Of a stretch of DNA of 32,857 nucleotides, positions 3,185-32,857 are shown one piece after another. The notes under the pieces were generated by a model. The model was given only the letters and a program-made list of their open reading frames with translations. It was not told the origin of the DNA and did no database searches. Position 1 is the first letter of the stretch; every line of letters begins with the position of its first letter. The position numbers and the translations under genes were made by a program. Source of the stretch: Seison nebaliae (Eukaryota); contig JALJEE010000809.1 in assembly GCA_023231475.1 (NCBI GenBank), positions 1-32,857 of the forward strand, read 5' to 3'.

Positions 3185-4373
3185 ATGTTCCAAGTGAATA
3201 CCGTCATCTCTACCATCGCCATTCCGAAGGATATGACACAAGAATTGAAGAAGTCCCTAAATATTATTGAAATTCAACATTTGTCGGAAGAGGAGAAATA
3301 TGAAGAAATTGTGAAACATAAAAGTTGCTCTTGAAATTTTTTGGTTGTTTGTTTATTTCATTCCGTTTTCAACATGAGAAGATTCATGTTTAGGCATTCT
3401 ATGTAGTGTTAATTTCAAAGTAACTAAAGAATTGCTTGGGAAACTTGACCAATTGAAAGTTTCTCTTTGTTTACCTTTGATTTTTTTTCGACAGTATCTT
3501 TCTTTCAGGTCGTATCAACGGCGTCTGTAGGAATCGATCACATCGATATTGGAGAATGTCAGAAATTGAATATTGCTGTTGGAAATACTCCAGGTATTTT
3601 GGATGATGCTACAGCTAATTTGACGATAGCGCTTCTCTTGGCAGTTTTAAGGTTTTAAGTTCAATTATCAATTGAAATAATGAGGAAATTGAAATGTAGG
3701 AGAATACCAGAAGGAATAAATGCGGTAAAAAGTGAAAATGGATGGAAAGCGGCACCTGATATGTTTTGGTTGACGGGCGGAAGTATTACTGGTCGAACAA
3801 TTGGTATATTAGGAATGGGAAGAATAGGAAAAGCAATTTGTCAACGACTCGTAGGCTTCGCACCGAAGAAGATAATTTACACGAGATCTAATTCTAAACA
3901 TGTCGTTCAATCGATGTATGATTTGAAGTCGAATTATTTTAATAGTCTCGCTATTCCAATCGAACAATTAGGATCGAATAATGATTTATTTAAATATTCG
4001 GATATTCTAATCATTTCTTGTCCTCTCACTGATGAGACGAGGAAATTGGTCAATAAGTTTCTCATTTCTCATCTTCATTTTATTCCTCATTTGAGTTTAA
4101 AGGAAGAGTTTAGCAATGATGAAATCGACATCTGTTCTTATAAATATTTCGAGAGGTGGAGTCATCGATCAGGAAGCATTAATCGAAGCACTTAAGATGC
4201 GAAGGATCGCTGCAGTCGGTTTAGACGTCTGTTCACCAGAACCGATATCACCATCACATGAATTGGTGAAATTAGATAATTGTGTAATGCTACCACATAT
4301 CGGATCGGCAGAGGTGGAATGTCGACGAGCGATGATTCGGAAAGCATTAGATACCATCATTCAATACGTTTAA
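3185..4373 (+). CDS. GRHPR: Glyoxylate reductase/hydroxypyruvate reductase-like D-2-hydroxyacid dehydrogenase, 5 exons
   Basis: Introns 3324-3381 (or 3378), 3459-3508, 3652-3699 and 4057-4102 give one frame. Motifs: LKVVSTASVGIDHID, VGNTPGILDDATA, GILGMGRIG (Rossmann), INISRGGVIDQEAL, GLDVCSPEP, LPHIGSA. Confidence 0.9.
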
Positions 4374-4542
4374 AAAGGTAAGCTTTCTTCATCCATGAGA
4401 ATGATTTGGTTATAAGAGAATAAAAATTAAAAATAATTAAATTTTTGATTTAAATTATCGAAAGAAAAATTGGAGGGTCGATTAATTGAAGAATTAAAAG
4501 AGAAATAAATCGTTTTCCATATTTTTCGTTTTCCGTAAATTG

Positions 4543-6528
4543 ATGAGTGGGAGAGATATGAAACGACGAAAGAGAAATGAGAAGAAATTGAAATTTCTCA
4601 ATGAGAGATATGGAATTCATTTTTCTGATTCTCTTACTAATTATCTGGTGATTGGGAATATGGGAATGCTTTTCTCTCATTCACGTCAACATGTCTCCGA
4701 AGAGATTATTTCAATTTTGAATTCATCACAATTATTAAATGATAACCGTTCAACAACAACAACAACAAGAGAAGAAGAAGAAGAAGATGATAATAATAAT
4801 AATAAGATAATGATGAAGAAGAAGAATTTGAGAATGGAAGAAATTCAAATAATTATGCCGTTTAATTCACCATATATTCTCATTAAATTTCCAACGGTTG
4901 AATTAACCGAATTATTCTTAAATTTCTTAATTCATTCTCGTTACGGATCATTCGTTCATGAAGATGTATGGTTGAATGAAATGAAAGAAAAGAAAAGAAA
5001 AAAAGAGAATGTGAGAGAGATAGAGGGATTGAATTTGTTGAGAGAGGTGTTAAAAGATGAGAGAGAAATCGAATGTCTCTGGTCTCTTTTCCTCTTGTCA
5101 CGAGAGAAACATGTTCAATTGAATAATCGAACTGTCTTACATTTTGGTAAGCGTTTCAATTATTCTGATAATTCTGCCACTACAATCAATGAAGCAATTC
5201 CTCAAATTCTCTTAAATCTCATTCGACCTTATTCATCTCAATTGCCTAATCAATGTACGATTAATGCTTATCGATATGGTGATCAAATACCACCACATGT
5301 CGATGATGTGAATCATTATGATGGAACGATATTCTCCTTCAGTTTAGGCGAATCAATTTCCATAAACTTCCAATCTATTGAAGATAATTCGAAAAAATTT
5401 TCATTAATTCTTCCTAACAATTCCCTTCTGATCATGAGAGGTGATAGTCGATACAAATGGAAACATTCCATCAAAATGGATTATCCACAAAACGTCTTTT
5501 CACTTACTCAATATCATGACGAACAATTCAAAAGATTATCATTCACCTTCCGTCGATTTTCTCCAAATATTCCGAATGTTGATTCCGATCTCATTCTTTC
5601 TGATCGATTGGCGAGTGTCGTTGAAGAGCGATATGTTCGTGAAGTTTATGAACAAATCGCTTCTCATTTCAGTGATACTCGACATTCGTGGTGGGGAGTA
5701 GTTCAACGATTCCTTCAGCGATATCTCAAATATCCTTTTGTCACTCTCATCGATGTGGGTTGTGGAAATGGAAAATATATGAGATGGAAATTGAATGAAT
5801 TCAATCCCAATTCATTTTATCATCATATCGGAATTGATTTCTCTCGTCAATTATTGAATGAAGCTAAACGAGAAATGTTTGAAGAAAGTGATGATAAATT
5901 CACTTGTCATTCATTTGATTTAATTCAAGGTAATTCACTAAATATGTCACTCGTTTCCGGTTGTGGCGATGTGATTATATCAATTGCTGTTCTTCATCAC
6001 ATTTCTACCACACCTCGTCGCATCCAATTTCTTAACGAATTAATGAGATTATTATCGACGGATGGTAAAGCTCTAATTACCGTTTGGTCGAACAATCAAC
6101 AACATTCGACATATGCGACATGTCACGAATCGAATGAAACGAAACGTCATCAAACAACATCATGTCATGACGATAATGCATCAATGACGGTAAATGAGAA
6201 GGCTGAAACGGTTAGAATAATATCGGATGACGGTGCGAAAGAGAGTGAAATATTATTGCCAATTCAAAAAGAGAAGAAATCATTTAATTTCGATGATAAT
6301 CTCGTACCATGGAAACGGAAAATTACCGAATCATCTTATCAGACATTCCTACGCTATTATCATGTTTTCGAAATGGAAGAGATTTATAATTTAATTAAAT
6401 TACACAACGAGCAACATCCCAACCGACATATCCACATTAATGATTTATTTTGGGAGGAAGGTAACTGGTGTTTTATTCTCTCTCATTCTAATAAATCCAT
6501 TTTAATTGGAGGACAAAGATCATTATGA
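4543..6528 (+). CDS. ALKBH8: ALKBH8/Trm9 tRNA wobble-uridine modifying enzyme (RRM-like + AlkB dioxygenase + SAM methyltransferase), apparently intronless
   Basis: AlkB motifs QCTINAY...IPPHVD...WKHSI...RLSFTFRR. Trm9 domain: EERYVREVYEQIASHFSDTRHSWW, DVGCGNGKY, ISIAVLHHIST..RR, LVPW, RYYHVF, EEGNWC. Confidence 0.93.
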   Translation: MSGRDMKRRKRNEKKLKFLNERYGIHFSDSLTNYLVIGNMGMLFSHSRQHVSEEIISILNSSQLLNDNRSTTTTTREEEEEDDNNNNKIMMKKKNLRMEEIQIIMPFNSPYILIKFPTVELTELFLNFLIHSRYGSFVHEDVWLNEMKEKKRKKENVREIEGLNLLREVLKDEREIECLWSLFLLSREKHVQLNNRTVLHFGKRFNYSDNSATTINEAIPQILLNLIRPYSSQLPNQCTINAYRYGDQIPPHVDDVNHYDGTIFSFSLGESISINFQSIEDNSKKFSLILPNNSLLIMRGDSRYKWKHSIKMDYPQNVFSLTQYHDEQFKRLSFTFRRFSPNIPNVDSDLILSDRLASVVEERYVREVYEQIASHFSDTRHSWWGVVQRFLQRYLKYPFVTLIDVGCGNGKYMRWKLNEFNPNSFYHHIGIDFSRQLLNEAKREMFEESDDKFTCHSFDLIQGNSLNMSLVSGCGDVIISIAVLHHISTTPRRIQFLNELMRLLSTDGKALITVWSNNQQHSTYATCHESNETKRHQTTSCHDDNASMTVNEKAETVRIISDDGAKESEILLPIQKEKKSFNFDDNLVPWKRKITESSYQTFLRYYHVFEMEEIYNLIKLHNEQHPNRHIHINDLFWEEGNWCFILSHSNKSILIGGQRSL

Positions 6529-7184: not shown

Positions 7185-7251
7185 AATATATACATCTTCC
7201 AAATAACATTACCATCACCTCCATCATCACCATCGTAATCATCAATAGGAG

Positions 7252-9416: not shown

Positions 9417-12400
9417 TCAATTAACTAATTTGACGAATTTGTGGAATTTATCGAAAACTGCTGGAAATTTAGCACCGCGACTCTCTTCGATTGCCGCTGA
9501 TAACATTTGAACTGCATCATCTTCCGATTTATCGAGAGCAAACTTATCCATCACTCTCTTGACAGCGACATGTGGTTCACTTTTAATATCGTGAATATTC
9601 GCATCTAACATTAAGGATAAAGCATTGGCGAAATAATTACTATGACTTCGAAGATGGATAAAAGCGGTACAACATAATCGTTTAAATCTCTTAAAATTCT
9701 CACTTGATTCACCACCCATCGCATTCACCATATCATTCGTTAAACGCATTGGTGATGGGAAGATTTTTGGATCATGACCCAAAATATATCCATAATCAAT
9801 ATGGAATAAACATCCATCTTTTGTTATGAGTATATTATCTAGATTTCGATCTCCCACCAATAATAGATAAGTGACAAGACCATAACCAGCACAACTGCTA
9901 ATGTAATTGTTCATCACATTCGAATTGTTATCATGAAGGGAATTTATGTAATTGACTAATGTTCCATCAGGAAATTCAGCTAATGCTTTCGAACTAATAA
10001 ATTCGACAAATCCTTCTTCTCGATCTGTTGAAATACAACGATAAACTGTCAATTTCAAATCTAATCCTTGATCCAATAATAATCGATCAACGAGACCGAT
10101 AATTTGGAGAACTAATTGATCTTGTCTCATATCGTCACCAGATTTGTAGAGGACGTTAAATTGTTCGGAATTATTTAAGATGAATGGTAATTTGAATGGA
10201 ATATTCGCACTATTTATCACTTCCACTTCATCAATTTTTATTCCAACCGCAATCAATTTAGGATCGATAGGGAGATAAACAGGTCGTTGGAATTTCTCCA
10301 ATTCCTGCTCCTCTTGCAATCGCTTCAATAAGGCGAATCGATCTTGTCGTCCTTTGCGAATATTCTCATTTTTGAGAACATATCGAAAAGATCGTAATTT
10401 CTTTATGAATAATTTCTGTTCGTGTAATCGACGACATATACGCCGACCATTCTCACTCGTATGTAAACGTAGAATTAATCGAGTAATGATGACAGCGAAG
10501 AGAATGTGCATCTCATCTTCATCATTCAATTTCAATCGTTGAAAAATATTCAATAATTTACCATCACCACTTATCGCTTCTAATGATATTGGTGGTGTAT
10601 TTGTCTCACTTTTCAATAGATTTTCATTCTCATTATTATCATCATCATCATCATCATTATCATTAGGATTTGTATTGGATTGATTGGATGACATACTTCC
10701 ATCTTGTTTTAATAGATTGACGAAAATATTCATATTTCCATTAAGTAGAATATCCTCTTCATATGAAGCACCACTCTCAACATGTAAATACCAAAATAAA
10801 TAATGTGCAATCGATTCATTGACGAATGCTCGTTCGATTAAAAGTGAAGCAAGATCGCTATAATCATTCATATCTCGTTCTTCATATAATTGTTTAATAA
10901 AATCATAATTTTCTTTCTTCCCCTCATAATATCGTTGCCAAATCGAACATTCTTTCAAATAAGTTCCTAATAAATCTTTTTTTGTTTCATATCGAATTGC
11001 TTGAACTAATTGAAGAAGAAACATTGACAATTCCTCATTCTTCGCTTCACGTAAACGACGAACAGCATATGACCGTGCTTCTTTCGCCGTTTGCATATCA
11101 CTCCCCAACAATTCCAGAACATCCACCACATCAGGTGCCTTCCATCCTTCCACCAATTCCATTGCACTTGACGCCTCTTCCTCATTCGACCAGATAACGG
11201 CACGTAAAAATTTCACAACAGCTCGACCGTCATTAGTGAGATGATGAGCATATTGCCAAATCAACGCTTTATCAGATGTAGTCAATGGAATGAAACAGGA
11301 TTGAGCAATCAATTTCGTCAATCGTTGTTTCACTGGTGGTGTAACGATCAATGCACGTTGTTGTTTCGAACGATTTAATAAGAGGAATTTCTTCTCAGCA
11401 TGTGCTGACGCTTCAAGCGTGGGATCTGGTACGAATTCTCTTGTTAAACGAATTGCAGGAAATATGGATGATATTTTATTTTCATTCATCTCATTCGATT
11501 TATCTAATCCATCAACTTTCTCATTGAGCGAATTAACAATTTTCGTCACTTTCCTAATATTGGTAATGAGAGATAAGGGATCGCATTTCTTCGAATATGT
11601 TGAATGAAATAAATTGTTGACTTGAAGACGTGTAATTCGCTCACTATTATCATCATTCCACGAACTTCCATTAATCGTCATTCCATCCACATCCTCCTTA
11701 TGTCGTTGATGAGCATTTTGAGTTAATCGATTATAATTATAATTATCATTCTTATTACGTTTTATTGATCGACTATTATTATTCGTATTATACGTCGTCA
11801 TTATATTCTCTTTATCGTTTGAATTGAACAAATTTTTCGAATTCGAATTCATCGATCGATAATATGATTTGACGAATTTCTTCGAATTTTTATCTCGACT
11901 ATCATAATCATTCGTTGCATGAAGAGATGATGCTGCAAATTGATCAGCGTACATCACATCTAACAATTTGAATCGACCACTAATATTCTTATCAAAAATT
12001 TGACAATTTATCGATTTTTCTGATGGAAGGAAGAAATGTGGAAAATGTAACAACATTGTCCATTTATAATCATTAATATTATTATTCTTATTATCATTTA
12101 TTGAATGATTCTTATTTAATCGAATGGAATCGGAATTGATTTTATCGCCAATTCTTGAAATCGTTCCTGATTCTTTATGATTTGTTGGTAATTCTTTGAA
12201 TAATTCACATTTCATGAGATGAGCATGTTTCGATATACTCTTTCCTAATAAAGCATCATACCAAGCTCTTTTCAAATTATTTGATTCATATAAATAATTA
12301 TCATCAAAACTGGATCTGATACTCGTATCATATGAATGATGACGATGAGATTGACGAGCTGCATGATTCCATGTTCGACGACATAAATTTATTTGGATAT

Positions 12401-13076
12401 CCTCATTCAATTTGAAATCGAATTCATCCGTTTCTTTCATGTTACTCGTTCGTTTCTCATTCGAATTCTTCACACACATCTCAACATCGCCTTGAATGAG
12501 TTGATGTCTCTCATTAAATACGTCCACCAACAAAGTCCCGAATGATAATCTATCTTCATTATTATCATCGATCAATCTCGTTAAATTAGAAGAGAAGAAT
12601 TGAATGAAAATTTTCGCATCCAACGGCAAATCCATATAAGTTAATGGGAAAATTATGTTTTCGTTAAATTCGGCGGATGATTTCAACGTTGTCAACAACG
12701 GTTTATACGTCGTGATAATTGGAAGACATAATCGATGATATTCCTTCTCCTCTACTCTCACCAGTTCATTCAATCCCATCATTTCATTCGATAATAATTC
12801 TGCTTTCGCATAAACTTCGATTTGGTCATTCTTTTTATTACTCATTCCCATATCGCCAACTCGAATGTTATAGAATGCCTCTCCACTACTCTCATTGGAA
12901 TTGGCGATGGTTTGAAGGAGAAGATTCGATTCACATTTCCATGAATATAACGTCGATAAACGGAAACGTACATTCAATGGAATATCACACGAACATAAGA
13001 ATCGATGTTGGGACGATATTGACAATTTCTCTTTGATTGCCTCGACAAATCGATCAGATATATTCTCATCTTTCAT
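9417..13076 (-). CDS. PIK3C3: Class III phosphatidylinositol 3-kinase (VPS34), divergent, with Asn/Asp-rich insertions; apparently intronless
   Basis: C2-region FPLTYMDLPLDA; helical domain KFLRAVIW, RSYAVRRL, LLQLVQAIRYE, YLFWYLHVE; kinase domain KSGDDMRQDQLVLQII, SCAGYGLVTYLLLVGDRNLDN, FHIDYGYILGHDPK. The first in-frame ATG is at 13076; the ORF track starts at a GTG. Confidence 0.92.
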   Translation of the reverse strand: MKDENISDRFVEAIKEKLSISSQHRFLCSCDIPLNVRFRLSTLYSWKCESNLLLQTIANSNESSGEAFYNIRVGDMGMSNKKNDQIEVYAKAELLSNEMMGLNELVRVEEKEYHRLCLPIITTYKPLLTTLKSSAEFNENIIFPLTYMDLPLDAKIFIQFFSSNLTRLIDDNNEDRLSFGTLLVDVFNERHQLIQGDVEMCVKNSNEKRTSNMKETDEFDFKLNEDIQINLCRRTWNHAARQSHRHHSYDTSIRSSFDDNYLYESNNLKRAWYDALLGKSISKHAHLMKCELFKELPTNHKESGTISRIGDKINSDSIRLNKNHSINDNKNNNINDYKWTMLLHFPHFFLPSEKSINCQIFDKNISGRFKLLDVMYADQFAASSLHATNDYDSRDKNSKKFVKSYYRSMNSNSKNLFNSNDKENIMTTYNTNNNSRSIKRNKNDNYNYNRLTQNAHQRHKEDVDGMTINGSSWNDDNSERITRLQVNNLFHSTYSKKCDPLSLITNIRKVTKIVNSLNEKVDGLDKSNEMNENKISSIFPAIRLTREFVPDPTLEASAHAEKKFLLLNRSKQQRALIVTPPVKQRLTKLIAQSCFIPLTTSDKALIWQYAHHLTNDGRAVVKFLRAVIWSNEEEASSAMELVEGWKAPDVVDVLELLGSDMQTAKEARSYAVRRLREAKNEELSMFLLQLVQAIRYETKKDLLGTYLKECSIWQRYYEGKKENYDFIKQLYEERDMNDYSDLASLLIERAFVNESIAHYLFWYLHVESGASYEEDILLNGNMNIFVNLLKQDGSMSSNQSNTNPNDNDDDDDDNNENENLLKSETNTPPISLEAISGDGKLLNIFQRLKLNDEDEMHILFAVIITRLILRLHTSENGRRICRRLHEQKLFIKKLRSFRYVLKNENIRKGRQDRFALLKRLQEEQELEKFQRPVYLPIDPKLIAVGIKIDEVEVINSANIPFKLPFILNNSEQFNVLYKSGDDMRQDQLVLQIIGLVDRLLLDQGLDLKLTVYRCISTDREEGFVEFISSKALAEFPDGTLVNYINSLHDNNSNVMNNYISSCAGYGLVTYLLLVGDRNLDNILITKDGCLFHIDYGYILGHDPKIFPSPMRLTNDMVNAMGGESSENFKRFKRLCCTAFIHLRSHSNYFANALSLMLDANIHDIKSEPHVAVKRVMDKFALDKSEDDAVQMLSAAIEESRGAKFPAVFDKFHKFVKLVN

Positions 13077-13753
13077 AGTCGTCCTTCTCACTCACATTAA
13101 AAACAATCACTAAAATTTGGAGAAATGAAACATGAAAAAATAAAAACAAAAGAAAAATTCATTCCTCGACTCTTTTTTCTAGAACCTAGATGTTTCGAAG
13201 GAAACAAATCAGATTTTTTCAAAAAACTTTTTTATTTCTTTAAATATTTTGATGAATTCAATTCATTTAATTTCTCATTTAAATCATTCAGACAGAGGAG
13301 AAATGATGATAGTTAATGAAATTAAATTCGTCTTTTCTCATTAAAACTCACCAAAAGGAAATTGAACCAAATGACTTATTTTTATCACCTCTACAATTAA
13401 ATCTCTTTTGAGCATGTGCACAGATGTGGAAGAAGTAGAGAAGTAACTGTAATTATTACCATCCGTTCTCTCAATAAACATTCTTTTATTACCTCCCGTT
13501 CTTCTATTGACAAATTTTCCTTGGGAACTCATTTCAAACAATTCTTTCATATATTTCTTTTTATCTTGTAGCTAATATTTTGAATTTCTTTTATCTTCTC
13601 AATTATACTCATTTCTCTTCATTGTTAATTTTCCTTTCATTCTATTCATCACCTTAACAACCATCTGAAGCAGTTAGTGAACACTATCATTTTATTTCTA
13701 AAGTATTAACAGTTAATGAAGTTTGTCAAGTTATTCAATTCGATTTAATCTAA

Positions 13754-16700
13754 ATGGAGATATCCGAAATTACCGATAAAATGACATTACCATCGGAGAA
13801 TGAAGAAAGTGAAGTTGATATCTTCAACGATGATCGGTTTCGTGAATATCAACGTCGAACTGATGATAGTCATTTGTTATCGAATCAATTGTTTCTTCTT
13901 TACTTCTCCCCCTATGAAAGAAGTAATTTCTTATTCTTCTTCAATCAGATGTGAGAAAGCTGTTAATAATCGTAAAATTATTCGGGAACGCGTCGCAAAT
14001 AATCCGATTGTCGATCCGCCCAAATTCCCCAAAGAAGTTACTCAAATCTCTTTCTTATTTCACGTAATTTGAATGTCTAGACGATGTCTGAAGGAAGATA
14101 TGTCCGAGTTACTAAATATTTTGTCATTCGTCATTATTGAAATGTTCTTAAGGAAAATTTTATAATTTTGGCAGAAAGTATTCGTTCGTCACCACCCAAT
14201 CTAATGCAAACAGAAGTGAAGGAAAGTATTTGGAGACGAACAGCATTAGCTAGTCATGGCTTCCGTCCTGATCACGAAAAAGCACAAGAATTATTTGAAG
14301 AAGTCGAAGCCGTTTATATTGAAACGATTAAACATGCTGATAGTTTGCCAATTTTCGTTGGTGAGTCTCTCTTACTAATTAATTAATAGTTTCTCATGTA
14401 CTTCGACCCGTTGAACTGGTGAAAAAACCGAAAAAAAAATCGTTAATTAATTTTTTAATGTTCTCCCTCATTCAATGACAATTGAACTTTCTTAATTTTC
14501 TCAGTAAAACGAAACCGTTCTTGAAACGGGAACGACATAATGATGATAACGATTTCTCCAGTCCATGGCATGCTGAATTTATTCAAGCGAGAACATTTAT
14601 TTATAAATCGCTCAATTTACTCCATCCGCCAATGGTGAGAACGTTGGAGATGTATCATCGAGATCTGAAAGATATTTATCTCATCGATTTCCCCTCATTA
14701 AAGTTCCTCCTTTACATCTCATGACATTATTGTTTCAATTTCTCTCTCCAGTGCTAATAGTCCGATGGATTTGGTAAGATTCCCCAATTTTGTCGGTTTG
14801 CAAATTGAGCAATCCGCTGACAAATTGATGGAAGGGTTTTATCGACAAGTTGCCGATTTCGTTGAAACTTATATTGTCAAAATACATGACGATGCTAAAC
14901 CCAAATTTCTCATTTCATTCGATACGTTGATGAAGAATTTGGTTTGCATTTCTCATCATTCTTTTTAGTTTCATTTTTCTCGCCAGTTAATGGATATGAT
15001 GAGGAGGACAGTGATGCAATTGGTAGCAATTTTTGAAACAGACGATTGGACAACATTACCGACATTCACTATTGATTTCGCTTGTGATGAAAATGATATT
15101 ATATTCGATCCGGATGAAGAAGGAATGAAAAAGTTACTACATGGAGTCGTCGAGAAATGTGCGTACTCTCTGAAAGATGTTACGAATTATCATTTCTTAT
15201 TATTTCCTAACATTTATTCCAGTTGAATCACATCGCCGCTTATTTGAGAGGATCGAGTGAATCGAGTAATTTATGTTTAGCGAAAGATTATATTCAAGAA
15301 GCGTTCGATCGTTTGGATAAAGCCACCGAGAAATATTTCAGTAGTGCTAATTCATTCTTAAGAACATTAAGTCTCTTCTTTTTTCTCACTTTACAACAAA
15401 CTAATTGTATTCGATAGAATTCCGATATAACTATCTCAATAACGGTACGGAGGAAGCGAAAGTTCTGAAATATATCAGTAATCCTAAACATGACTTTGAA
15501 GATTTCTCAAGAGTTTCCTTCTTCTTCTTCTTCACTTTTCTTTTTATTATTTCCATTTTCTTTCAGTACATTCTCCACTTTCGCAATTTACAAAAGGAAT
15601 TACAATTACTTCCATTCTCTCATAAATTGCCGTTGTTGAATATTCACTGTAGTCGATTTAAGAAAGGAATGATTCAGCATGTCGATACTCATATCAACAC
15701 ATTGATTTCGAAGATACATAAGAATCATCAAATCGAATGTAAAACGTTAGAATTACTTTTCAACTCATAGTTCATAGGAAGAGATTCATTCAAAATTCAT
15801 AAAAATTCCATAGAATTATTAAAGAATTCGAATTGATAAGACGGAAAGCGTTGACACCACCAGAAACAACAGAGGAATTGAATAACGCTACGAAATTTAT
15901 CGATAAAATTAAAACGAGCACTTTAGGCCAACTCCAACAACGAATTCGAGTTAACAAGTCATTTTTCTTTTCCCTTGCACCATTTCCCCCATTTAGGATG
16001 CACAACGTATTATGGTGTTTTTATTGGAACAAAAAATTATTTCAAAAGAAGATGTGGAATTGAATGCTCATCTGATTTCGTGGTTGACAAAAATTATCGA
16101 TATATTTGATCGAAATGATGAAGTTTGATAAAATTTTTTCTTCGAATGAAAATCTTTATGAAAATTGTTTAGTTGTTCCGCAACGTGAAGAATGCTTACG
16201 AGACGATGTTATTGGAAACGAGAGAGAAATTTGGGAATGATCTCGAGAAAATATTTAGGCGAGTAGAAGAATTTGCACAAAATAGCGAAATGGAAATGAT
16301 GAGACAATATAATGAGGACGCGATTAATTTAAGTAAACGAATTGATGAAGCTCAAGAAACGGTCAATTGGGTGAACCAGGTCACGACTTATTTTGTAGAT
16401 ATTTTTTTATTTTTAACCGACAAAACATTTCAGGAAGAAGAACAATTTAATATGCAAAAGACAGAATATCCATTACTTAATACGATTCGTGTAATGTTGG
16501 AACCGTATCTTCGATTATTCAATACCATTCTTCGATGGCAACGAGATGAAAAGAAGTTTTTCCTTTAATTTTATTCGAATAATTTGATGGGATATATCAG
16601 ATGGTATGATGGTGCGTTCCTAGAATTAAATTCGGAACGTGTCGAAAATGAAGTGGACGATTATTATCATGAAATTTATAAAGTGAACAATATCTTCAAG

Positions 16701-19700
16701 AATCAAGTGAAGAAGAGAAAATTAGAATTGGAAGCGAAATTGATGGAATTACAAAAGCAGAAAAGTTTCTATCTTTTTCTTTTCTTCTTTTTCATTGTTT
16801 GTCGAATGATTTCATCTAAACAACTAATAATTCAATATTAATTATTCTTCTGTGATGATTTTCAAGAGGAAATTCCTCCAGAATTGCGAAGTAAAAAATT
16901 TACGGAGACTGTTGGTGAAATGACGGGAAGTGTGTTATCTAATTTAGAGAAATTTAAGGTGAGATCTTGAATGAATGCTTTATTTTCCATATATTCTTCT
17001 TGTAATAATTGTGTCGTCACCGAATTGTCTGTTTCCTTCACATTTCTTAAAATTTATTGTCCAATTTCACGTTTGTGGATAGATTTCATATTTTCTTTTT
17101 TTTCTAGCACTCAGCTCTCACGAAAGAGAGGAAAGAGAACAATTTATTGATGAATATGGCACTGGCGTTTTCGAATTCTCAGCGAGAATTACGAAAGATA
17201 TTAAAAGCTTTAAAGTTTAGTAGAAACTCGAAAAAACACGAATTTCTTAGCACATTCCTTAGAATATGTCTGTATCAATTTTTGTTTTGCGATTTAATTT
17301 TATTGTTAACTAATCATTTAGCAATTAGTTGAAGTGCCGTCGAATATTAAGTGATTGATGATTCGTTTCGTTTAGGAAAATATTCCAGTTATCCAAATTC
17401 TTTGTAATCCCGGAATCCGGGATCGTCATTGGGCTGTCATGTCAGAGATAGCGGGAAGAGATTTGAAACCAGATACTGGAACATCATTAAGGAAAGTTCT
17501 CCGAATGGATTTGGATAAACATATGAAGGAATTCGAAGTTGTGAGCGGAAGTGCAACGAAGGAACATAGTTTGGAATGTGCGTTGAAGAAGATGAAAAGT
17601 GAATGGGAAGATATGAAATTTAATATTACAACATATCGTGATACGGATTTATATATTTTATCGTCAGTTGACGATATTCAACAAATGTTAGATGACCATA
17701 TAGTGAAGACACAGACGATGAAAGGATCACCATTCATTAAAGCGTTTGACAAAGAAATCAAAGAATGGGAACAACAATTATTGCTCGTTCAACAAATCAT
17801 AGACAGTATGTTGAATATGCAGCAACAATGGCTGTATTTGGAACCGATCTTCTCATCGGAAGATATTAATAATCAGATGCCAGCTGAAGGTAAATTATTC
17901 CGTATCGTCGACGCCTCCTTCAAAGATATCATGAGCATTTTAGTAGAGAATGATGACGTGTTGAATACGGCACATGTGCCCGGTTTATTCGAACGATTGG
18001 AAGAAGGTAATGAAAATTTGGCAACGATAAATAAAGGATTGAATAGTCATTTGGAGAAGAAGAGACTTTACTTTCCACGATTCTTCTTCCTCTCCAATGA
18101 TGAAATGTTAGAGATTTTATCAGAAACGAAAGATCCGATGAGAGTGCAACCCCATTTGAAGAAGTTGTTCGAAGGAGTAGGAACATTAAAATTTGATGAT
18201 GATGAAAAGATTCTTGCATTCAATTCACCCGAAGGGGAAATGGTGAAATCCTGTGAAATTATCGATACGAAGAAAGCGAAAGGAGCAGTGGAGAAATGGT
18301 TGATCGATGTTGAGCGTGTAATGATTGCTTCATTGAAGGCCATCTTCATTCAAGTTCATGAATCACATATGCATCTGCCATTAGAGGAATGGGTGTCCAC
18401 TTGGCCCGGTCAATCCATTCTATGTATCTCTCAAATTTATTGGACGTTAGAAGTTGTTGAATCGATGATGGATCCCGCCAATTCATTAGAGTTATTTATT
18501 TACTATTTTTTTGGAGTTTATTCAATTTTCTATTTTCGTTTTCTAAAGAAAATATTATCGGAAATTATCAGAACAATTGAACGATATTGTCAATTTGGTA
18601 CGAGGAAAAGTGCCGAAACAAGTCCGAATCACATTGAGTGCTCTCATTGTTATTGAAGTGCACAATCGAGATGTTGTGAGTGATATGCATGTGAAGAAAG
18701 TGTCATCTGCCAACGACTTCAATTGGCTAGCACAATTAAGATATTATTGGATTGATCAAATCGTCAGTGTTCGAATAACGAACGCCACTGTAAAATATTG
18801 TTACGAATATTTAGGAAATACGGGAAGGTTGGATTTGTTCACGTTACACTATATTTTCCTATATATTCATTTCAGATTAGTTATCACACCATTAACCGAT
18901 CGTTGTTATCGGACGTTAATTGGAGCATTTCATTTAAATTTAAATGGTGCACCCGAAGGTCCAGCTGGTACGGGAAAAACTGAAACGACGAAAGATTTAG
19001 CGAAGGCGTTAGCTGTCCAATGTGTCGTATTTAATTGTTCGGATGGTTTGGATTATATAGCGATGGGTAAGTTTTTCAAAGGCTTAGCATCATGCGGTGC
19101 TTGGGCATGTTTCGACGAGTTTAATCGTATCGATCTGGAAGTGTTGTCAGTAGTCGCTCAACAAATTCTTTCGATTATTCGAGCCGTTCGAGCTAAAGTG
19201 ACAAAATTCGTCTTCGAAGGAACGGAAATATCGTTAAACCCAAATTGTTATGTTTGTATCACGATGAATCCAGGTTATGCAGGTCGATCCGAGTTACCTG
19301 ACAATCTAAAAGTTCTATTCAGACCAGTCGCTATGATGGTACCAGATTATGCATTAATTGCAGAAATATCGTTGTATTCTTATGGATTTTTGGAAGCGAG
19401 AAGTTTAGCCGTTAAAATTGTGACCGTTTACAAATTATGTTCCGAACAATTATCATCACAATTCCATTATGATTATGGTATGAGAGCCGTAAAATCTGTC
19501 TTGTCGGCGTGTGGAAACTTGAAATTGAAGCAACCGTTAATGGATGAGAATTTGTTAATTCTACGTAGTATAATCGATGTGAATCTCCCTAAATTTCTCT
19601 CACAGGACGTTCCATTATTTGATGGTATTATCTCCGATTTATTTCCAGGAGTGGAGTTGGAACCGGCCGATTACGAAACGTTTACCCAATATATTCAACA

Positions 19701-22700: not shown

Positions 22701-25700
22701 TGGTTTGGACAAATTGGCATTTGCAGCCGAACAAATTTCAGAAATGAGAAAGATTGCTCAAGATCTCCAACCGCAATTGGAGAAATCAGCAGAAGAGACG
22801 AAAGTGACGTTATTGAATGTACAAGTCGAATCGAAAGCAGCAGAAGAAGTGAAGGAGGTTGTTCTGAAAGAGGAGGCGATAGCGAATGAACAAGCAGCAG
22901 AATCACAAGCATTGAAAGAAGCATGCGAATCAGAATTGGCATATGCAATGCCTGCAATGGAAGAAGCCAGTAGAGCACTAAAAGCGTTACGACCCAATGA
23001 AGTTGTCATCGTCAAATCGATGACTGCGCCACCTGAACCCGTTAAAGATGTTATGGCTGCCGTTTGTATTTTATTAGGAACACCACCATTAATGATACCG
23101 GATCCTGATCGACCAGGTGTAAAACGTGCTGATTATTGGAATCCAGCCAAAAAATTAATGGGCCAATTGGGCGCACAAGGATTTCTTGCCAAATTGACTG
23201 AAATGCAAGCGACGGATATCAGTCCAGCAGCCATTGCTAAAGTAAGAAAAGAATATATATCGAAACCGAGTTTCGTTCATGAGAAGATTACAGCGGCATC
23301 AACAGCGGCAGCTGAAATTTGTAAGTGGGTGAAAGCGATGGACTTAGCGGAAACGGTTAATCGTGAAGTTGCTCCAAAGAAAGCGAAATTGGAGGAAGCT
23401 GAAACGAAATATCAAACGACAATGGAACAATTGAAGGAGAAACAGAAACAATTGAGTGATGTTCAAGAGAAATTGGAGAACTTTCGAGTCCGATTAGAAT
23501 TGCAGGAAACGGAGAAAGATAATTTAGAACGACAAGTAACCGATTGCAAGAAGAAGTTAGTGAGAGCTGAACAATTGATTGGTGGATTAGGTGGTGAGAA
23601 AGATCGTTGGATTACTCAGGCTGATCGATTGCAATTTCAATATGAGAATTTATTGGGAGATATTTTAGTATCAGCTGGAATCATTGCTTATCTGGGAATA
23701 TATACACCAGGCTTTCGAGAGAAATGTATTGCCAGATGGTTAATTATGTGTCAAGAAAAGAAATTACCTTGTATACCACAACATTTCTCATTGAACAGTG
23801 TACTGGGAGATGCGGTACAAATACAGTCGTGGAATATCGCTTTCTTACCAAAAGATTCATTTTCCATCGATAATGCCATCATCGCTTTCAAAGCACGAAA
23901 ATGGCCATTAATGATCGATCCACAATCACAAGCCAATCGATGGATAAAACGATACGAACGAGAGAATCAATTACATATCGTCAAATTTACCGATTCTGAT
24001 TTTAATCGTCATCTCGAAAATTCAATCACTTTCGGCCATCCGTTATTATTGGAAAATATTGGCGAGACGGTTGAACCGTCATTGGAACCGATTCTTCTCA
24101 AACAAACCTTCATTCAAGGTGGAACTCAAATGATCAAACTGGGAGAAGATGTTCTCGTTTATTCACCAGATTTCCGTCTTTATATGACGACTAAATTGAG
24201 AAATCCACATTATCTTCCTGAGATTTCAGTGAAAGTGACATTAATAAATTTTATGATTACACCCGATGGATTAGAAGATCAACTTTTAGGAATAGTAGTA
24301 GCAAAAGAAGATCCTCATCTCGAACAACAACGTCAAGAGAATATCATCGTTACGGCGAATAATAAACGACAATTGAAGACGACAGAAGATGAGATTCTCT
24401 CCATTCTCTCGTCACCCGAAGGAAACATATTAGAAGACGAAACTTCAATTAACGTACTAAAAGAGGCGAAAACCATTTCGGATGACATAAATCGTAAACA
24501 AACGATTGCTGATGAAACGGCTAAAAAGATCGATACTGCTCGTCAAGAATATCGACCAATCGCTAAATATTCGTCAACGTTATTCTTCTGTTTAACCGAC
24601 TTGCCCAATATCGATCCGATGTATCAGTATTCGTTAAATTGGTTTGTCGGTTTGTATGAGAATTCCATTTCGAATTGTCGACGAGGCAGAGTAATGACGA
24701 GACATTTGAGAAACTTACAAGAACATTTCACCGCTTCTATCTATACGAATGTTTGTCGTTCCTTATTCGAGAAACACAAACTAATCTTCTCATTTATCAT
24801 GTGCTCAAATATTCTGATGGCTGAGAACGAGATTGATAAAGATGAATTTCGATTTTTATTGACTGGTGGTGTTGGTGTCACTTCAACCGAACCGAATCCC
24901 TGTGAATCCTGGTTATCTAATCGATCATGGAGAGAGATTTGTCGTTTAGAGGAATTGAGTAGATTTAAAAATTTCAAGTTATTTCGTCAAATTTATCATT
25001 TTTTTCCATCAATTAATGATATTTTAGGAAAAGTTTTAAAAACACACTTAATGATTGGAGAGATATCTATGAGAACGTTGAACCACATTTGACACGATTC
25101 CCAGGCGAATGGGATACATTGACATATTTTCAGAAAATGATTATTATGAGATGTATTCGACTAGATAAAGTTATTCGCATTTTTTATTCTCTTTATTAAT
25201 CATCCAATTAATTAGGTCATCAATATGATCCAGGAGTATATTACGAAAAAATTAGGTGCAAAATTCATCCAACCACCGAACTTTAATTTAGCTCAATCAT
25301 ATTCCGATTCGACCGCACAAATTCCTCTATTATTCGTATTGTCACCTGGTGCAGATCCGATGTCACAATTACTCAAATTCGCGAAAGATAGTAATGTGGA
25401 AGGTGATCGATTTCATGCCATATCTCTTGGTCAAGGACAAGTTATTTTGATCCATCCAAATAATTTCCATCATCTATTGATGTGATAATGATATTCCAGG
25501 GACCGATTGCTGCGAAGATGATAAAAATGGGATTGAGAGAAGGTTATTGGATTTGTCTCCAAAATTGTCATCTGGCTGTATCATGGATGAGTGCATTAGA
25601 AAAAATTTGTGAGGATATTTCAACGAATAGTGACATTAACAGTAACTTCCGTTTATGGCTTACCAGTTACCCATCTCCGAAGTTTCCAGTTACCGTCCTA

Positions 25701-27592
25701 CAAAACAGTGTGAAAATGACGAATGAATCACCAACTGGTATACGACTGAACATGCAACAATCTTATTCGAATGATCCAATATCTGATGGAGATTTTTTCG
25801 AAAGTTCTGATGAATCAAAGATAAATGTTCATTTCATTCGATTCTTATTTCGAACATTAAATTTTTTTTAGGTTTGGTGTCGACTATTGTATGGTTTGTG
25901 TTTCTTCCATGCACTCATATTGGAAAGGAGGAAATTCGGTCCTCTTGGCTTCAATATTCCTTATGGATTCAACGAATCCGATCTCCAAATTTCAGTACGA
26001 CAATTAAAAGTCAGTTTTATTCCATTCCATTTTCATCATATCGTTTCAGATGTTTATTGACGAATATGAGGACGTACCATATGATGCAGCGAAATATATG
26101 ACGGGAGAATGTAATTATGGTGGTCGTGTCACGGATGATAACGATCGACGATGTTTATTAACCATACTAAATGATTTCATTTCGATGCATGTGGCGAAAA
26201 CAGAAAATTTCCCATTATCTCCAAGTAAAAACTATTTAGTTCCCACCGTTGTAACATATTCGGAATTTATGGAATATATTCAAGTTATATCCTTATGATT
26301 ATTTTGTACTTCCAACTTAATAATAGGAATTACCCGCGGAAGATAATCCTGAAGTTTTTGGAATGCATGACAATGTCGATATCTCGAAAGATATGGCCGC
26401 CACAACCAGTTTATTCGATAACGTCATTCTTGCGATGACTTCGGCCATTAGCGCATCTGACAAAAAATCCCCAACAGAAGAAGAAGATGAGGCTGATAGT
26501 AGTAAGAATAAGTTGGAAGAAATAGCGTCTGATATTCTAACGAAAGTACCGCGAGAATTCGATATCGAACAAGCGACTAGTAAATATCCGGTGACATATG
26601 GTGAAAGTATGAATACAGTTCTAGTACAAGAAATGGCAAGATTTAATCGGTTTCCATTTTCACAAACACAATAATTTCTCATTTCAATAATTTTGAAGTT
26701 TAATTGCAATCATTTATTCCAGTCTCATCAACGTCGGAAAAGCGTCGAAAGGTCTGATAGTAATGAACGCCGAACTAGAAGAACTCGCCCAAACATTAGT
26801 GATTGGTTGAATTAAGAATAAAATTGTTTTGTTTCAACTATATTTTTCTAGGAAAAATACCTAATATGTGGGCTCAACGTTCTTATCCATCACTGAAACC
26901 GTTGGGCAGTTACGTACTAGATTTAGTCGCACGCTTAAACTTCTTCCAAGTTACTTCTCCAATTCCATAATGAAAATTGTTAACTTCTCACAGAAATGGT
27001 TTGAGAATGAACCACCGGTCACCTATTGGATTTCCGGTTTTTATTTTACCCAGGCCTTTCTTACTGGTGTTCGGCAGAATTACGCACGAAGTGAAAAGAT
27101 ACCAATCGATCGTTTGACATTCCAATTCCAAGTTAACATGCTTATATCTTCCAATTAAACGTTTCCCATTTCCATCATAATAGACGCTTAAATCATTTAC
27201 AATGAGTGACAAACCGAAATATGGAGCATATGTCAACGGTCTCTTTTTAGATGGGGCCAGATGGGATGTTGACCAGTTCACTTTTTCTATTAATTCATCC
27301 TAAACGATTATTTGATATGTTTAGCAATATTTTGGCAGAACAAAAACCGAAAATTTTGAATGAAGCAGTTCCTGTCATTTGGTTGAAACCGACGGAAATC
27401 GATTCGAGAGATAAAGTTATCATCGGAAACTCATACGATTGTCCTCTCTATAAGACGAGTGAACGTCGAGGCACACTTTCCACAACTGGTCATTCCACTA
27501 ATTTCGTTTTAATGGTCAGTCTAAAAACGAAGTTGCCCAGTAGTCATTGGGTGAAACGGGGAACGGCTCTCTTATGTCAATTGGATTCTTAA
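13754..27592 (+). CDS. DNAH12: Axonemal inner-arm dynein heavy chain, DNAH12-like (DNAH3/7/12 group), about 31 exons per isoform
   Basis: P-loops [43 protein letters not shown]...[11 protein letters not shown] (DNAH12-like, from recall); C-terminal [16 protein letters not shown]...[14 protein letters not shown]. Frame-restoring introns: 13891-13948, 14037-14080, 14108-14152, 14343-14389, 14442-14504, 14703-14751, 14942-14986, 15179-15222, 15371-15417, 15513-15566, 15746-15813, 15950-15996, 16123-16172, 16380-16433, 16556-16600, 16765-16866, 16959-17375 (or via the alternative exon), 18491-18548, 18828-18875, 24978-25027, 25170-25215, 25441-25499, 25827-25871, 26010-26049, 26284-26326, 26650-26698, 26806-26851, 26950-26993, 27132-27183, 27276-27324. 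Confidence 0.93.
16867..16958 (+). other. Dynein alternative exon A (candidate mutually exclusive)
   Basis: Acceptor ttcaag, phase 1 in; encodes [30 protein letters not shown]; donor AAG|GTGAGA, phase 0. Confidence 0.75.
17108..17214 (+). other. Dynein alternative exon B (candidate mutually exclusive)
   Basis: Strong pyrimidine tract ending tttttctag, phase 1 in; encodes [35 protein letters not shown]; donor AAA|GTTTAG, phase 0. Confidence 0.72.
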
Positions 27593-27784
27593 TCCCAACA
27601 AATTTCAACGACGAAACATTGAGAATTTTTCAATTTTAAGCTGACGACATAATTTTCGAAAATAAAATCATTATCTCTGTTAATCCAATTAGTGACATTT
27701 CTGATTTAAAAAAATTTCAAAATTTTCAATTTCGAAAAAAAACGAAAATTTCTCATTTCACTTTATTCTTTTGATTCGTGAGAT

Positions 27785-28554
27785 ATGTGGATCTTCGCCT
27801 CCTCCATCATTGTTGGGATCGTCACAATGGTTCTGTGCGAGTACCTCCACAATTATATGGGGAGAGAACCGTTTCTCTTCACCACCGACGAATTATCTTT
27901 ATGTGATGGAAAGAAATCAGATTGTCTCCAATTGGCATTCTTAGGAACGGTATATGATTTGAATACAGAGAAAGGTCGACAACATTATGGTCCGGATGGA
28001 CATTATAACATGTTTACAGGACGTGACTCCACTTTGGCATTTGTAACGGGAGATTTCGATAAGGATTTAACCGATGACATTTCGAAATTGAAAAGAGCCG
28101 AATATCCGATTATTGTGAATTGGGTAAATTTTTACGAGAAACATTATCGAAGTGTTGGAAGAGTGATCGGAAGATTTTATGATGAGGATGGTAAGAAAAG
28201 TGAAATTTTGAAAGATATGGAAAAATATCAGAAAAATTTGGAGACGAGTTCCGATGAGATGGACGATGTGAATCCGAACGATTATATGCAATGTGAAATT
28301 AGTCGAGAGAAGAAACATGTAATTTATTCTTGTGCCAAGTTCACTTTTCTCATTAAAGCTTTTCATTTTATTTCTTTTTCTAAATAATTTCCTTCAACAG
28401 GGAATCGAATAATCATGTTCCTCGGATTCTGATGGTGAGAGATAAGGAGCATTGTATTTGTTTGAAGAAGGGCGAAAAAATGAAGGAAAATATGAAGATG
28501 ATGAAAGACTGTACAAAAATTGATAGTTCCATATGTTATGTTCATTTATCTTAA
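27785..28554 (+). CDS. CYB5D2: Neuferricin (cytochrome b5-like heme/steroid-binding MAPR family protein), 2 exons
   Basis: N-terminal hydrophobic anchor; LFTTDELS..DG, LAFLGTVYD..KGRQHYGPDGHY..FTGRDST.AFVTGDF, VGRVIGRFYDEDG. Intron 28339-28400 adds the Cys-rich tail (VPR...HCIC...C); stop TAA at 28552-28554. Confidence 0.88.
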
Positions 28555-31500
28555 TTGGTGATGGACGAATGTCGTAAATGAGTGAGAAGTGAATTACATT
28601 TCTGCCATTTCCATCGCAATCTCTTCACATCATTTGACAACTTCCAATATATTTCTTTTAATAATTTCTCCAATTTCTCTTTATCATTTCCTTCCGTCGC
28701 GTCAATTTTCTTGATGAATAAAAGTTTATCAAAATTCTCCTTGAAAAAATGAAAATTAATTAATAAAAATAAATTAAAGTAAAAATTGAACTTTGACAAA
28801 TAATTTGAGAATGATGAGAGATACATCATAATCATTTTCATTCCATAATTGAAGAAGAAAGAGTTTCAAGAACGATTGAATTGGAAGGAACATTTCCGAA
28901 TGAATCTTCTCGTCACAATCGATGGGAAGTGAAAGATTTTCAACGATCGATATGATTTGTGTGAGAGGTAATCGACATAATTGATGGAATAATTCATTGA
29001 AATTTTTCTTTAATTTCTCTAAATCATTTTTATTTGACATACAACTCAACAATTTCTTTATCCAATCATTACCATGAAATAGATGAAGATAATTCTCTGA
29101 TAACGATTCATTTATTTCTGATGAATCAATCATCATCTCCTCCTTAATATTATCATTCGTTGTTGTTGTTGTTGTGGTTGTTTGATAGAGGAAGAAAGGA
29201 GGTTTTTCCATTCGAAAAATTTGTGATGGATGAGCTTTATTCCTCTCTATCATTTCATCCCAATAGAGTAAACGAGAGAAATAATGAAAAGGATAATTAG
29301 AAATATGAAAATAATTATTCTTCGATTGATTTAATTCATTTTTTCTTATAATATTTATTAATTTTAATTCATTCTTTTCTTCTTTATTCTTCATCATCAT
29401 CCTCTCATCAATTTTTAATTTCCAAATATTTATGTAATTACAATTAACATGTATACTCGCAATCATCGAATAAATGGAAGTGGACGATGAGAAATTATCG
29501 ATATTACCACTCTCCATCGATTCATGTGAATGTGGTTTAGTTTCCTTATAACCACTAATCAATGATGGTGGTAATGATATAGAAGTAATTGGATCATCCA
29601 ATTTCTGTTTGATGAGACGAATATTATCATAAACATTAAATATTTCCACATCTCCATTATTCATCGATATGAAGAGGAGAAGATGATTTGGAGACGATGA
29701 AATGGTTTTTCCTTCCGTTTTAACGATATTGAAATTAGGTAGAAATTTCATGGTGAACGGAATAGATGATATTGATGATACGGGAAATGTTCGAATGATT
29801 TCCATTGAATCGATATCGACAATTTTTATCATCGTCTTCTCATCATCCGAATGACAAATGGAAATATAATCGAATTTCTTACAAATATCGAACGAATAAA
29901 TAATCATAATTCTTTCTAATCGAAATTGTCTTATCAATTTCTTCTTTTTCATAGTATTATCAAAGAGAAGAATGAGACCATTTGTCGTTATCACAACAAA
30001 TCGACATGATGTGGAATCGAATGAAATAAATTGAATTTTTTCATTCTTTAATTTGGGTTTTATTCGAAACGAATCTCTTCCTGATTGGAGATTAAATGAA
30101 CAAATATCATTCTCTTCATTCGCTAATAAAACATAACTGCCACAAACACTGATATCGAAATCGACAATTTTCAATTGACATTTTTTGTCAGTCGAGAAGA
30201 GATTTGATCCTCGACATTTCCTAAATATATTCCACGAACTTAACATTGTGGAAGATTGATGAAGAGAAATGCAATCATCCCACAGACTATATCGTCTCAA
30301 ACAACATTTCGTTTTTGTGATAACGGGTGATAAGATGTCCTGATGGTGATAAAGATGATTTCTGAATTTCTCTGAATTTTCATTTTCTGCCGATTTTCCT
30401 TCATTGACTCGTTGATAAATATCTGATAAATAATTCTTCTTATTTTCTTTTTTCTTCAGTCTCAATGTCTCATCGTCGAATTGTTTCTGAATTGAATGAC
30501 CAAAATTGAAATTGAAAATCGATCGATTCATATGGAAATATTTCATCATTCCATCATTCGATGTTGTTACGAGTGTATCATCCGAATGGAATGATAACGA
30601 TGTTAATGGAGCACAATGTCCACAACGTTCAATATTGAGATCGAATAATTTCAAATGATTTTCCCCTTCCTCTAAATCATAATCACTCGAATAATATTTC
30701 CATAATTTTATGGAATTATCATTAGAATTGGTAATGAATCCCGTTCCATCAAACAATGGTGAAATGGAAAGAACTGGCGAACCAGTATTATGAACTTGTT
30801 TCTCAAAAATTATTATTGAACGTTCACAATCTACAACGATTATTTTTCCTGATGATAATCCCAAATAAATTTGATTCTCATCAAATTTATGAAATGCGGA
30901 AATTATCCGTCGATTTTCCAACACTTTAAATTGAAATAACATTTTATTCGTTCTCAAATTCAGGATGGTGACGACATGATGTTGAAGAACTAAAATACAA
31001 TCGATTTGATTGATCATCATCAGAGAACTAATACAACCGAATTCCTTCAACATATCAAATTCAAATAAAAATTTATTCTTTTTCAAATTCCCCAATATGA
31101 TATGACCATTATTCAAACTAATTACCAATTTATTGACATATGTAGGTGGTTGTATAATCGAAGTGATTCTTAATGAATTTCTTTTATTCTTTTTAATTTC
31201 TCCATCAGAATTGTCATCAGAATCATATTTTATTCCAATTTCTCCCAATATACATTCATTCACGAATGATAATGTGTGAAGTATATCATTCATTCGAAAA
31301 TCGAAAAGATAAATTTCACCTTCTTTACCAACCAGAATAATCGTGTCAATTCCATATGGATAAATATCGTTGATAGATATGGGAAGGAGTGAGATATATC
31401 GCAAATATTGATTACTCACCATCGTCAATAATAATTGATCGATTAATATGAATTGATGTGCACCATTCCAAATGATTTTCTTTGCTCGACTCTCAACACC

Positions 31501-31695
31501 ATTGAGATGATGAGGGAAGTGAGCGAAGAGGATGTCCAATGGCAATTGATTCGATTGACATCGAATTACCAATTTATCTGACTCATAAATATCGAACGAA
31601 TTCAAATGTGTCAATGGAATAAAATAACGGCGTCCTCTCACTTCACCACCATCCAACAACGATATTGATCCGACTGTCTTTACTTTATTTAGCAT
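28551..31695 (-). CDS. WDR36: WD40-repeat U3 snoRNP/SSU processome protein WDR36/UTP21, divergent, 2 exons
   Basis: Motifs ITSIIQPPTYVNKLVI (cf. HPxTYLNK), DNSIKLW, GHCAPLT, WDDCISLHQ, DISVCGSYV..FNLQSG and IERNK...KPPFFL (Utp21 C-terminal motif). Intron 28791-28740 (GTTCAA...CAAG) joins the final exon ending at 28551. Confidence 0.85.
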
Positions 31696-32155
31696 CACGT
31701 TTTTTTTCTTAATCTTGCTTCATATGCTAAAAATTTGAATTTTTTAAATTATTCTCATTTAAACTGAAATCGATTAATCAAACATATTCTCCTATTTTTT
31801 ACATTACTTAGTTTCAACTACTTTTTTTCTACCACTAGAAAAAGTGGAAGAAAATAAGATTCTTAAAGTTTCTACCTATTTTTATTGTGAACAATTCCTG
31901 GAAAATGAATCAACTATGAGACACTGTGAGAATTGTGCTCGAGAATAATTTAACTTTTCTTTATAAACGTTTCGCCACAACTGTCGTTGTTTGTGAAATA
32001 TTTTAATTCTAATTAGTAGTTGTTAAATGTTCCGGTTTTTTCTCTCGCTCAAATATCAGAAGTGAGTTGAAGTTGAAATGATGAGTTTAAATTTTTTAGA
32101 TGAGAGGACGTGGGATAATCATGGAAATTTTGTTGGTGCCCAAAAAATCAGATAA

Positions 32156-32857
32156 TTATGAAATGAAACTATTTCTCTCAATTGAACATAACATATTTTC
32201 CAACTCTGAACATTCATATCGTAAGGAGATGGGATAGTTGGCGATAGTGTCTGATCCCATAAATGATATCCATTGATATGAATCGAAATTGGATGGCGGT
32301 TGATCACATTTGATACGCATTTCGTTACGAAAAGCAGAGAATGCATTATCAGGAAATACATATCGTCCTTTCCCATCCATCAATAATCGATGACCGATTT
32401 GTCGACTAATATATTTGTTGTGGATGTTCAAATCATAATAAGAATTAGATCGATGTAAATTGAGTTTGAGTCGTGAAATGATTTCAAGAAAATCGTTTGG
32501 ACAATTCTTTAAGTAATCTCCTTTAAGATAATCGTCCCAAGATACGTTTTGGAAGAAATTCGATTTTCGTATATCATCGAAACTATTTGAGATAAAAATG
32601 AGGGAAATGATTAAGACAGATTTGCTAACCATTTAATACGGTAAACGGGATTGAAGAAGATTAATTGTGAAATTAATTGATAAAGATCTCGTTCAACCTT
32701 CACCGTCGTTTGGCGACCCATTGAAGAATTGAATAAGAATTCATATCGTTCATCCCATGGTGCTAACGGAATTGGGAAGTAATCCGGTTTCTCATAGAAC
32801 AAACAATTTACCATAAGAATTCCTGCGTCATAATAGTCTTTACCGTTCTTCCGCCAA
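32156..32857 (-). CDS. 3' part of a divergent AGC-like Ser/Thr protein kinase-domain gene (5' end outside window)
   Basis: Spliced over intron 32629-32583 it reads ...KDYYDAGILMVNCLFYEKP...DLYQLISQLIFFNPVYRIKCFDDIRKSNFFQNVSWDDY. This resembles kinase subdomains IX-XI (DWWxxGIL...DLIxxLLxxNPxxRL...DIKxHxFFxxVxWD). Confidence 0.6.

Follow-up and report, generated by a model that had tools for sequence, protein, structure and literature searches.

GTT splice donors in the reconstructed introns of Seison nebaliae and their possible reading by a changed U1 snRNA

The 32,857-nucleotide stretch analysed here (the window, contig JALJEE010000809.1 of assembly GCA_023231475.1) comes from the tiny marine rotifer Seison nebaliae and raises the question of how a spliceosome recognizes introns that begin with GTT. 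GTA is the usual intron start in animals. To our knowledge, a GTA or GTG start is near universal among them. In the window, 39 rebuilt donors begin with GTT in 35 cases, with GTC in three, all of them in the axonemal dynein heavy chain gene DNAH12, with GTG in one and with GTA in none. From introns reconstructed in this small set of genes, the donor shift appears to be a real, lineage-level change in an animal.

Reconstruction of the donors

Introns were obtained by exact spliced mapping of NCBI gene models, which gave a single GT-AG solution for each of 30 introns in DNAH12, one in 5-aminolevulinate synthase (ALAS) and four in a 2-hydroxyacid dehydrogenase gene. The ALAS protein is SNEBB_002652 at NCBI, and the SNEBB numbers of the dynein, dehydrogenase and cytochrome-b5-like genes are close to this one. 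These 35 mapped introns, together with 16959 (GTG), 28339 and the inferred minus-strand donors 28791 and 32629, make up the set of 39. All junctions are predictions at the RNA level, and the two on the minus strand have neither model nor homology support. The original prediction had counted the same classes at +3, with A at -1 in 26 donors, G at -1 in eight and G at +5 in eight, and our rebuild reproduced every figure exactly. DNAH12 contributes 27 GTT and three GTC donors. Further NCBI models add 16930 (GTG) and 28460 (GTT), so that 41 donors comprise 36 GTT, three GTC, two GTG and no GTA. The letters themselves are confirmed by contigs from three genomic runs, which reproduce positions 12900 to 31984 with zero differences.

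The DNAH12 junctions were scored by homology, comparing each frame-keeping GT/GC-AG pair near the 30 introns with 22 orthologues (chosen from 119 non-Seison matches) and anchoring on the neighbouring model exons. The modelled donor scored highest at all 30 introns, the modelled donor-acceptor pair at 29. Frame-keeping alternatives starting with GTA or GTG do not exist at 15 introns and score lower at the other 15, by at least 5 points in 14 of these. Margins over other donors are thin (below 6 points) at four N-terminal junctions (13891, 14108, 14442 and 16765). Removal of GT...AG restores the conserved protein at all 30 introns, as expected of U2-type spliceosomal introns. U12-type donors carry the motif RTATCCTT, and none of the 39 starts with GTATCC.

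The excess of T at +3 is above chance, because 35 of 39 exceeds the 48-50% T that follows GT in neutral context (28 of 56 in intron interiors, p 2e-7; 109 of 227 in intergenic DNA, p 5e-8). A purine stands at +3 once, against 10-15 expected. Apparent avoidance of GTT within exons (z -4.6 sense and -0.2 antisense against codon shuffles) was discarded, as it disappeared after control for junction dinucleotides (odds 1.43 for G|TT).

The alignment of one low-depth contig, which differs at five third codon positions, spans 16432-16558, taking in the acceptor AG, the exon and its GTT, and then stops; it is a single case (n=1), with ends deduced from the alignment table. The accessible part of the genome paper (PMC8351084) describes a rarer second lineage in the pooled Seison DNA. 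If the contig belongs to that lineage, the latter would retain GTT at donor 16556. The transcript-mapping table published with that genome (supplement 2, at least 19,906 rows) holds many gaps of 40-60 nt, and among the rows listed none of 18 length signatures fitted the window genes in full.

Donor profile and intron history

Beyond +3, the donors follow the profile (M)A(A/G)|GTT(A/T)(C/G) with GT-AG ends, realized in 27 different hexamers. All but one of the 39 donors have a pyrimidine at +3, and 31 have A or T at +4. Against a first-order background, A is enriched at +4 (17 versus 7.4 expected, p 3e-4) and T is depleted at +5 (7 versus 19.5, p 7e-5), where C (14 versus 5.7) and G (8 versus 2.7) are in excess, while +6 to +9 are at background. 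An earlier claim that +4 to +6 show no consensus thus stands at +6 but was overstated for +4 and +5. The introns are short (median 49 nt, 36 of 39 within 40-68 nt) and T-rich at their 3' ends, with C, T and A at -3 in 15, 18 and six cases. TRAY-like branch-point words are missing from 15 of the 39 introns and keep no fixed distance in the rest.

Complementarity to canonical U1 small nuclear RNA (snRNA) separates the 39 donors only poorly from 138 nearby GT decoys, with an area under the curve (AUC) of 0.61, or 0.48 for the intron part alone, and 26 donors have a neighbouring GT that matches canonical U1 better. Giving the ideal site T at +3 yields 0.81, and adding A at -1 yields 0.84, values that are circular, being fitted to the same donors, and descriptive only. 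Thirty-five donors fall outside both the AG|GU and the NN|GURAG classes. G at -1 and G at +5 tend to occur together (4/8 versus 4/31, p 0.04, one of many tests). The divergent spliceosome originally proposed is therefore partly supported, as far as donor reading is concerned, by this AUC and the 35 donors outside the known classes.

The flanking residues bear on the age of the introns. In the orthologues, lysine, glutamate or glutamine (K/E/Q) precedes 14 of 16 phase-0 junctions against a background of 0.20 (p 2e-8), and such residues before a junction are the mark of an old MAG| exon end. At the phase-2 introns 14703 and 24978, arginine is found in 22/22 and 20/22 orthologues, and Seison has asparagine and lysine, losing G at -1. 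Because these orthologue residues are of ancestral type, old introns seem to have been rewritten in place: the intron positions appear old from their flanking residues, with the constraint on -1G lapsed and +3 rewritten where it stood. In Seison, 11 of 12 phase-0 K/E/Q codons end in A, in line with ordinary codon bias (0.77, p 0.21). This weakens the idea that exonic A's were selected for U5 pairing, and codon bias following the loss of -1G probably explains most of the A at -1. A GGT motif at the donors of bdelloid tubulin introns (PMC3464624, accessible part) hints that -1G persists in relatives of Seison.

Candidate readers of the GTT donors

Something that disfavours A at +3 is needed, because GTA is wholly lacking though introns are 26% A. 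A change from U to A at nt 6 of U1, the base facing +3, would most simply account for the missing GTA, and it has a precedent in Entamoeba. We favour this mechanism tentatively, at slightly short of an even chance. The changed base would pair with +3U and disfavour +3A, so that the former came to be preferred and the latter purged. Selection for -1G and +5G would have largely lapsed, and short intron length (intron definition) would make a weak donor sufficient. The order T 35, C 3, G 1, A 0 at +3 fits an A partner. In the register in which U1 pairs with the donor, the residual signals of A at -2 (24/35 versus 12 expected) and A at +4 match unchanged neighbouring U1 bases.

Candidate loci were sought in the Seison-containing runs. 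The ordinary U1 5' end starts ACUUACCUG. At least 126 U1 stretches were collected from metagenomes, and the contigs of the runs were aligned to one of them (L086:2017-2134); differences are reported only more than 31 letters from the alignment ends. Three genomic runs each give two U1-like contigs, both readable beyond nt 28. The first has depths of 8.39, 16 and 15.4, equal to the single-copy depth of the window (about 8.2, 15.8 and 16.2). It aligns to U1 nt -1 to 49 with 40/50 identity to the bait (chance expectation about 0.001). Its upstream end is rich in AT, and beyond the aligned part it stays in register (15/24 by hand alignment). Its loop II reads AGAGCAC versus AUUGCAC, which we take to be the U1A-binding site. 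This divergent single-copy locus would be the likely reader of the GTT donors. The second contig, with depths of 5.4, 12.6 and 15.2, can be aligned as far as nt 116. Its loop II is unchanged, nt 34 in the U1-70K loop is U instead of G, and its 3' motifs recur in one collected U1 locus (L148). It could represent either another U1 of Seison or foreign DNA, for instance from the host.

Several observations weigh against a changed U1. A at nt 6 is found in none of 112 distinct metagenome U1 starts among the matches listed, with a pattern that allowed it. If alignments require about 11 exactly matching letters as a seed, an assumed length, an intact 5' end of the first contig is favoured about 3 to 1, as only 3 of 10 U1s of similar divergence contain a run of that kind beyond nt 6. 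The locus could also be a pseudogene. A single U1 change leaves the loss of +5G and the excess of +5C unexplained, and two modelled GTG donors (16959 and 16930) exist. Donor shifts without a U1 change are moreover reported, in the accessible texts, for Saccharomycotina (PMC10581693) and for Micromonas and Thecamonas (10.1101/2022.06.08.495308).

Somewhat less probably, the U1 5' end is instead ordinary and little used, +3 being read at the hand-off by U6 (a G44 wobble with +3U, an altered ACAGAGA box or its methylation) or by altered U1-C, Luc7, SNRNP27 or Prp8, with length defining most introns. The preference for a pyrimidine at +3 and for A or T at +4 agrees with such a reader, as does the seed argument, with its assumed length, and the loss of -1G is consistent with relaxed U1 pairing. 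Ordinary U6 tolerates +3A in other animals, so the missing GTA is unexplained by U6 alone and would require another change. The principal contact of U6, +5G, is kept in only eight of 39 donors, and C is rarer than T at +3 beyond background. Published accounts, as far as their accessible parts go, lend support: base pairing between U6 ACAGA and positions 2-6 of GUUUGU is possible (Roy and Bowser, 10.1101/2022.06.08.495308), the odd donors of Fritillaria are proposed to be read via snRNA m6A changes (PMC13326754), and the U5/U6 hand-off is the deciding step (PMC11732430). The excess of C at +5 is explained neither by this reading nor by a changed U1; on either, intron definition probably depends to a large extent on short length. 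An unlikely elaboration of the U1 change is that two U1 small nuclear ribonucleoproteins share the work: a divergent U1, with changed 5' end and changed U1A loop, would serve the A|GUU short introns, and an ordinary-like U1 the rare G|GU..G and GTG donors, as in the alternative DNAH12 exon, donors having been recoded in place genome-wide. The data are compatible with a second class of more ordinary donors, because GTG is limited to alternative exon A, on longer introns of 417 nt (16959) and 178 nt (16930), and because -1G goes with +5G.

The remaining explanations dispense with a changed reader. Were selection past GT simply to have lapsed, T-rich mutation pressure could have filled +3, as would suit the 50% T of intron interiors, the match of phase-0 -1A to codon bias and the lack of exonic GTT avoidance once the junction is controlled. 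This is improbable and largely refuted by the neutral GT contexts, which give 48-50% T against 35/39 (p<1e-6), by the return to background from +6 to +9 and by the one diverged contig that retains GTT before its alignment ends (n=1). The narrow length range would fit recent transposon copies of the Introner type carrying GTT, which we consider very unlikely: the best local score between introns is 34, against a mean of 30.7 and a maximum of 44 in shuffles, and terminal inverted repeats were not seen (7.5 versus 7.6 in shuffles). Junctions slide only 0-3 nt, mostly 0-1, so there are no target duplications, and the flanking residues are of ancestral type. That gene modelling or assembly produced the pattern is the least credible explanation, even though the junctions rest on models, since scoring by orthologues alone chooses the same donors and the genomic contigs confirm the letters.

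Among the U1 starts collected, rare variants carry A at nt 5 (L082 and L123) or U at nt 9 (L111). Clusters of snRNA genes are present in the metagenome contigs L026 (1-2834), L089 and L037; L026 and L037 hold U1, U2, U5 and U6 within 3 kb, and L026 also U4 and 5S. In viral contigs, the U1 pattern gave 25 matches, judged to be due to chance, and a search of viral sequences with rotifer DNAH12 returned no viral locus.

Features of the window and known systems

The features are listed in Table 1. DNAH12 has three isoforms at NCBI, in one of which exon A is shortened and joined to exon B. The two alternative exons both have FK as their last residues; the frame is kept with either one and is broken by both full exons together.

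Table 1. Genes, introns and donors in the window
Feature	Position	Strand	Description and basis
2-hydroxyacid dehydrogenase gene, SNEBB_002650	3185..4373	+	Introns 3324-3381, 3459-3508, 3652-3699, 4057-4102, all GTT...AG; NCBI model mapping and Pfam
Sole intron of ALAS, SNEBB_002652	8176..8234	+	aaa|GTTTAA, 59 nt; NCBI model mapping
DNAH12 gene, SNEBB_002654	13754..27592	+	3981-aa model, 30 introns; mapping and orthologues
DNAH12 donors	13891, 14037, 14108, 14343, 14442, 14703, 14942, 15179, 15371, 15513, 15746, 15950, 16123, 16380, 16556, 16765, 17215, 18491, 18828, 24978, 25170, 25441, 25827, 26010, 26284, 26650, 26806, 26950, 27132, 27276	+	
DNAH12 GTC intron	15371..15417	+	taa|GTCTCT; model mapping and orthologue scoring
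DNAH12 GTC intron	16380..16433	+	cag|GTCACG; model mapping and orthologue scoring
DNAH12 GTC intron	26010..26049	+	aaa|GTCAGT, 40 nt, shortest of the 39; model mapping and orthologue scoring
DNAH12 exon and GTT donor 16556	16434..16558	+	Aligned by low-depth diverged contig
DNAH12 alternative exon A	16867..16958	+	Donors 16959 (aag|GTGAGA) and 16930 (gaa|GTGTGT); NCBI isoforms P0483, P0482
DNAH12 alternative exon B	17108..17214	+	Mapping and frame test
Intron 1 of cytochrome-b5/neuferricin-like gene, SNEBB_002655	28339..28400	+	caa|GTTCAC; model support only
Intron 2 in NCBI model of SNEBB_002655	28460..28497	+	ttt|GTTTGA, 38 nt, purine-rich, doubtful
Inferred WDR36/Utp21 intron	28740..28791	-	aaa|GTTCAA; frame-keeping alternatives GTC 28797, GTA 28824; no homology support
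Inferred intron of minus-strand gene without family	32583..32629	-	atg|GTTAGC; frame-keeping alternatives GTA 32639, GTC 32617; no homology support

Family and structure searches with the minus-strand gene at 32156-32857 gave no match. This gene lies in a region (31806-32857) where depth is doubled and variant contigs occur, indicating a duplicated or collapsed region. Long intron-free stretches are the 6.1-kb DNAH12 exon (18876-24977), a Vps34-like PI3-kinase open reading frame (ORF; 9417-13091) and an ALKBH8-like ORF (4498-6528); introns cluster beside them at one per 100-200 nt. Positions 1-1726 hold a retrotransposon-like remnant with a match to reverse transcriptase RNase H. The ORF that comes next overlaps it, carries a motif resembling a Cys/His finger and gave no match in Pfam. 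An ORF at 2256-2963 matches Med21 weakly (E 3e-5, below the cut-off) and has a long C-terminal extension. CpG is over-represented in the window (observed/expected 1.3) and TA under-represented (0.61). An Rfam scan of the window gave no match.

Donor rewriting at apparently old positions, in an intron-rich animal that keeps alternative splicing, would be a natural experiment on which part of the spliceosome, U1 or the U5/U6 hand-off, determines the choice of donor, and bears on the way in which thousands of splice sites can adapt when the machinery changes. If two U1s were indeed at work, recoding in place would extend to the donors of the whole genome of an intron-rich animal. In practice, GTT donors affect the annotation of Seison with tools trained on other animals. 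Searches of the literature on Seison with introns or splicing, and wider ones, returned nothing on Seison donors, with subscription papers, bioRxiv supplements and intron databases outside their scope. For PMC10125929, PMC11347168, PMC10639083 and 10.1101/2024.08.01.605096, the coverage consisted of term look-ups; in PMC10639083, these showed Seison solely as a supplementary species label.

Among known systems, whose descriptions are taken here from the accessible parts of the sources, ordinary U2-type donors of the AG|GU and NN|GURAG classes (PMC11732430) share with Seison the GT-AG ends, the exonic A at -2 and a weak A at +4. However, most Seison donors fit neither class, and G at -1 and G at +5 co-occur rather than compensate. 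Fritillaria borealis (PMC13326754) is likewise an animal with a genome-wide change in the reading of 5' splice sites, but 95% of its introns escape GT-AG, whereas the termini in Seison are canonical and bear no transposon signature. Saccharomycotina (PMC10581693) also show a lineage-wide shift at one donor position; theirs is a switch between +4A and +4U that is tied to METTL16 and SNRNP27K and leaves U1 and U6 as they were, while that of Seison is at +3. The closest known system is Entamoeba, in which GUUUGU(U) donors co-evolved with a U1 reading ACAAAC (Roy and Bowser, 10.1101/2022.06.08.495308). Both have U in place of A at +3 in nearly all introns and keep GT-AG ends. Entamoeba has few introns and a strict motif, with GUUUGU in 88-89% and +5G kept. 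Seison, in contrast, is an intron-rich animal, with 30 introns in the 11.9-kb DNAH12 coding sequence (about 2.5 per kb), and its donors are varied, GTTTGT occurring in none of the 39 and +5G in eight.

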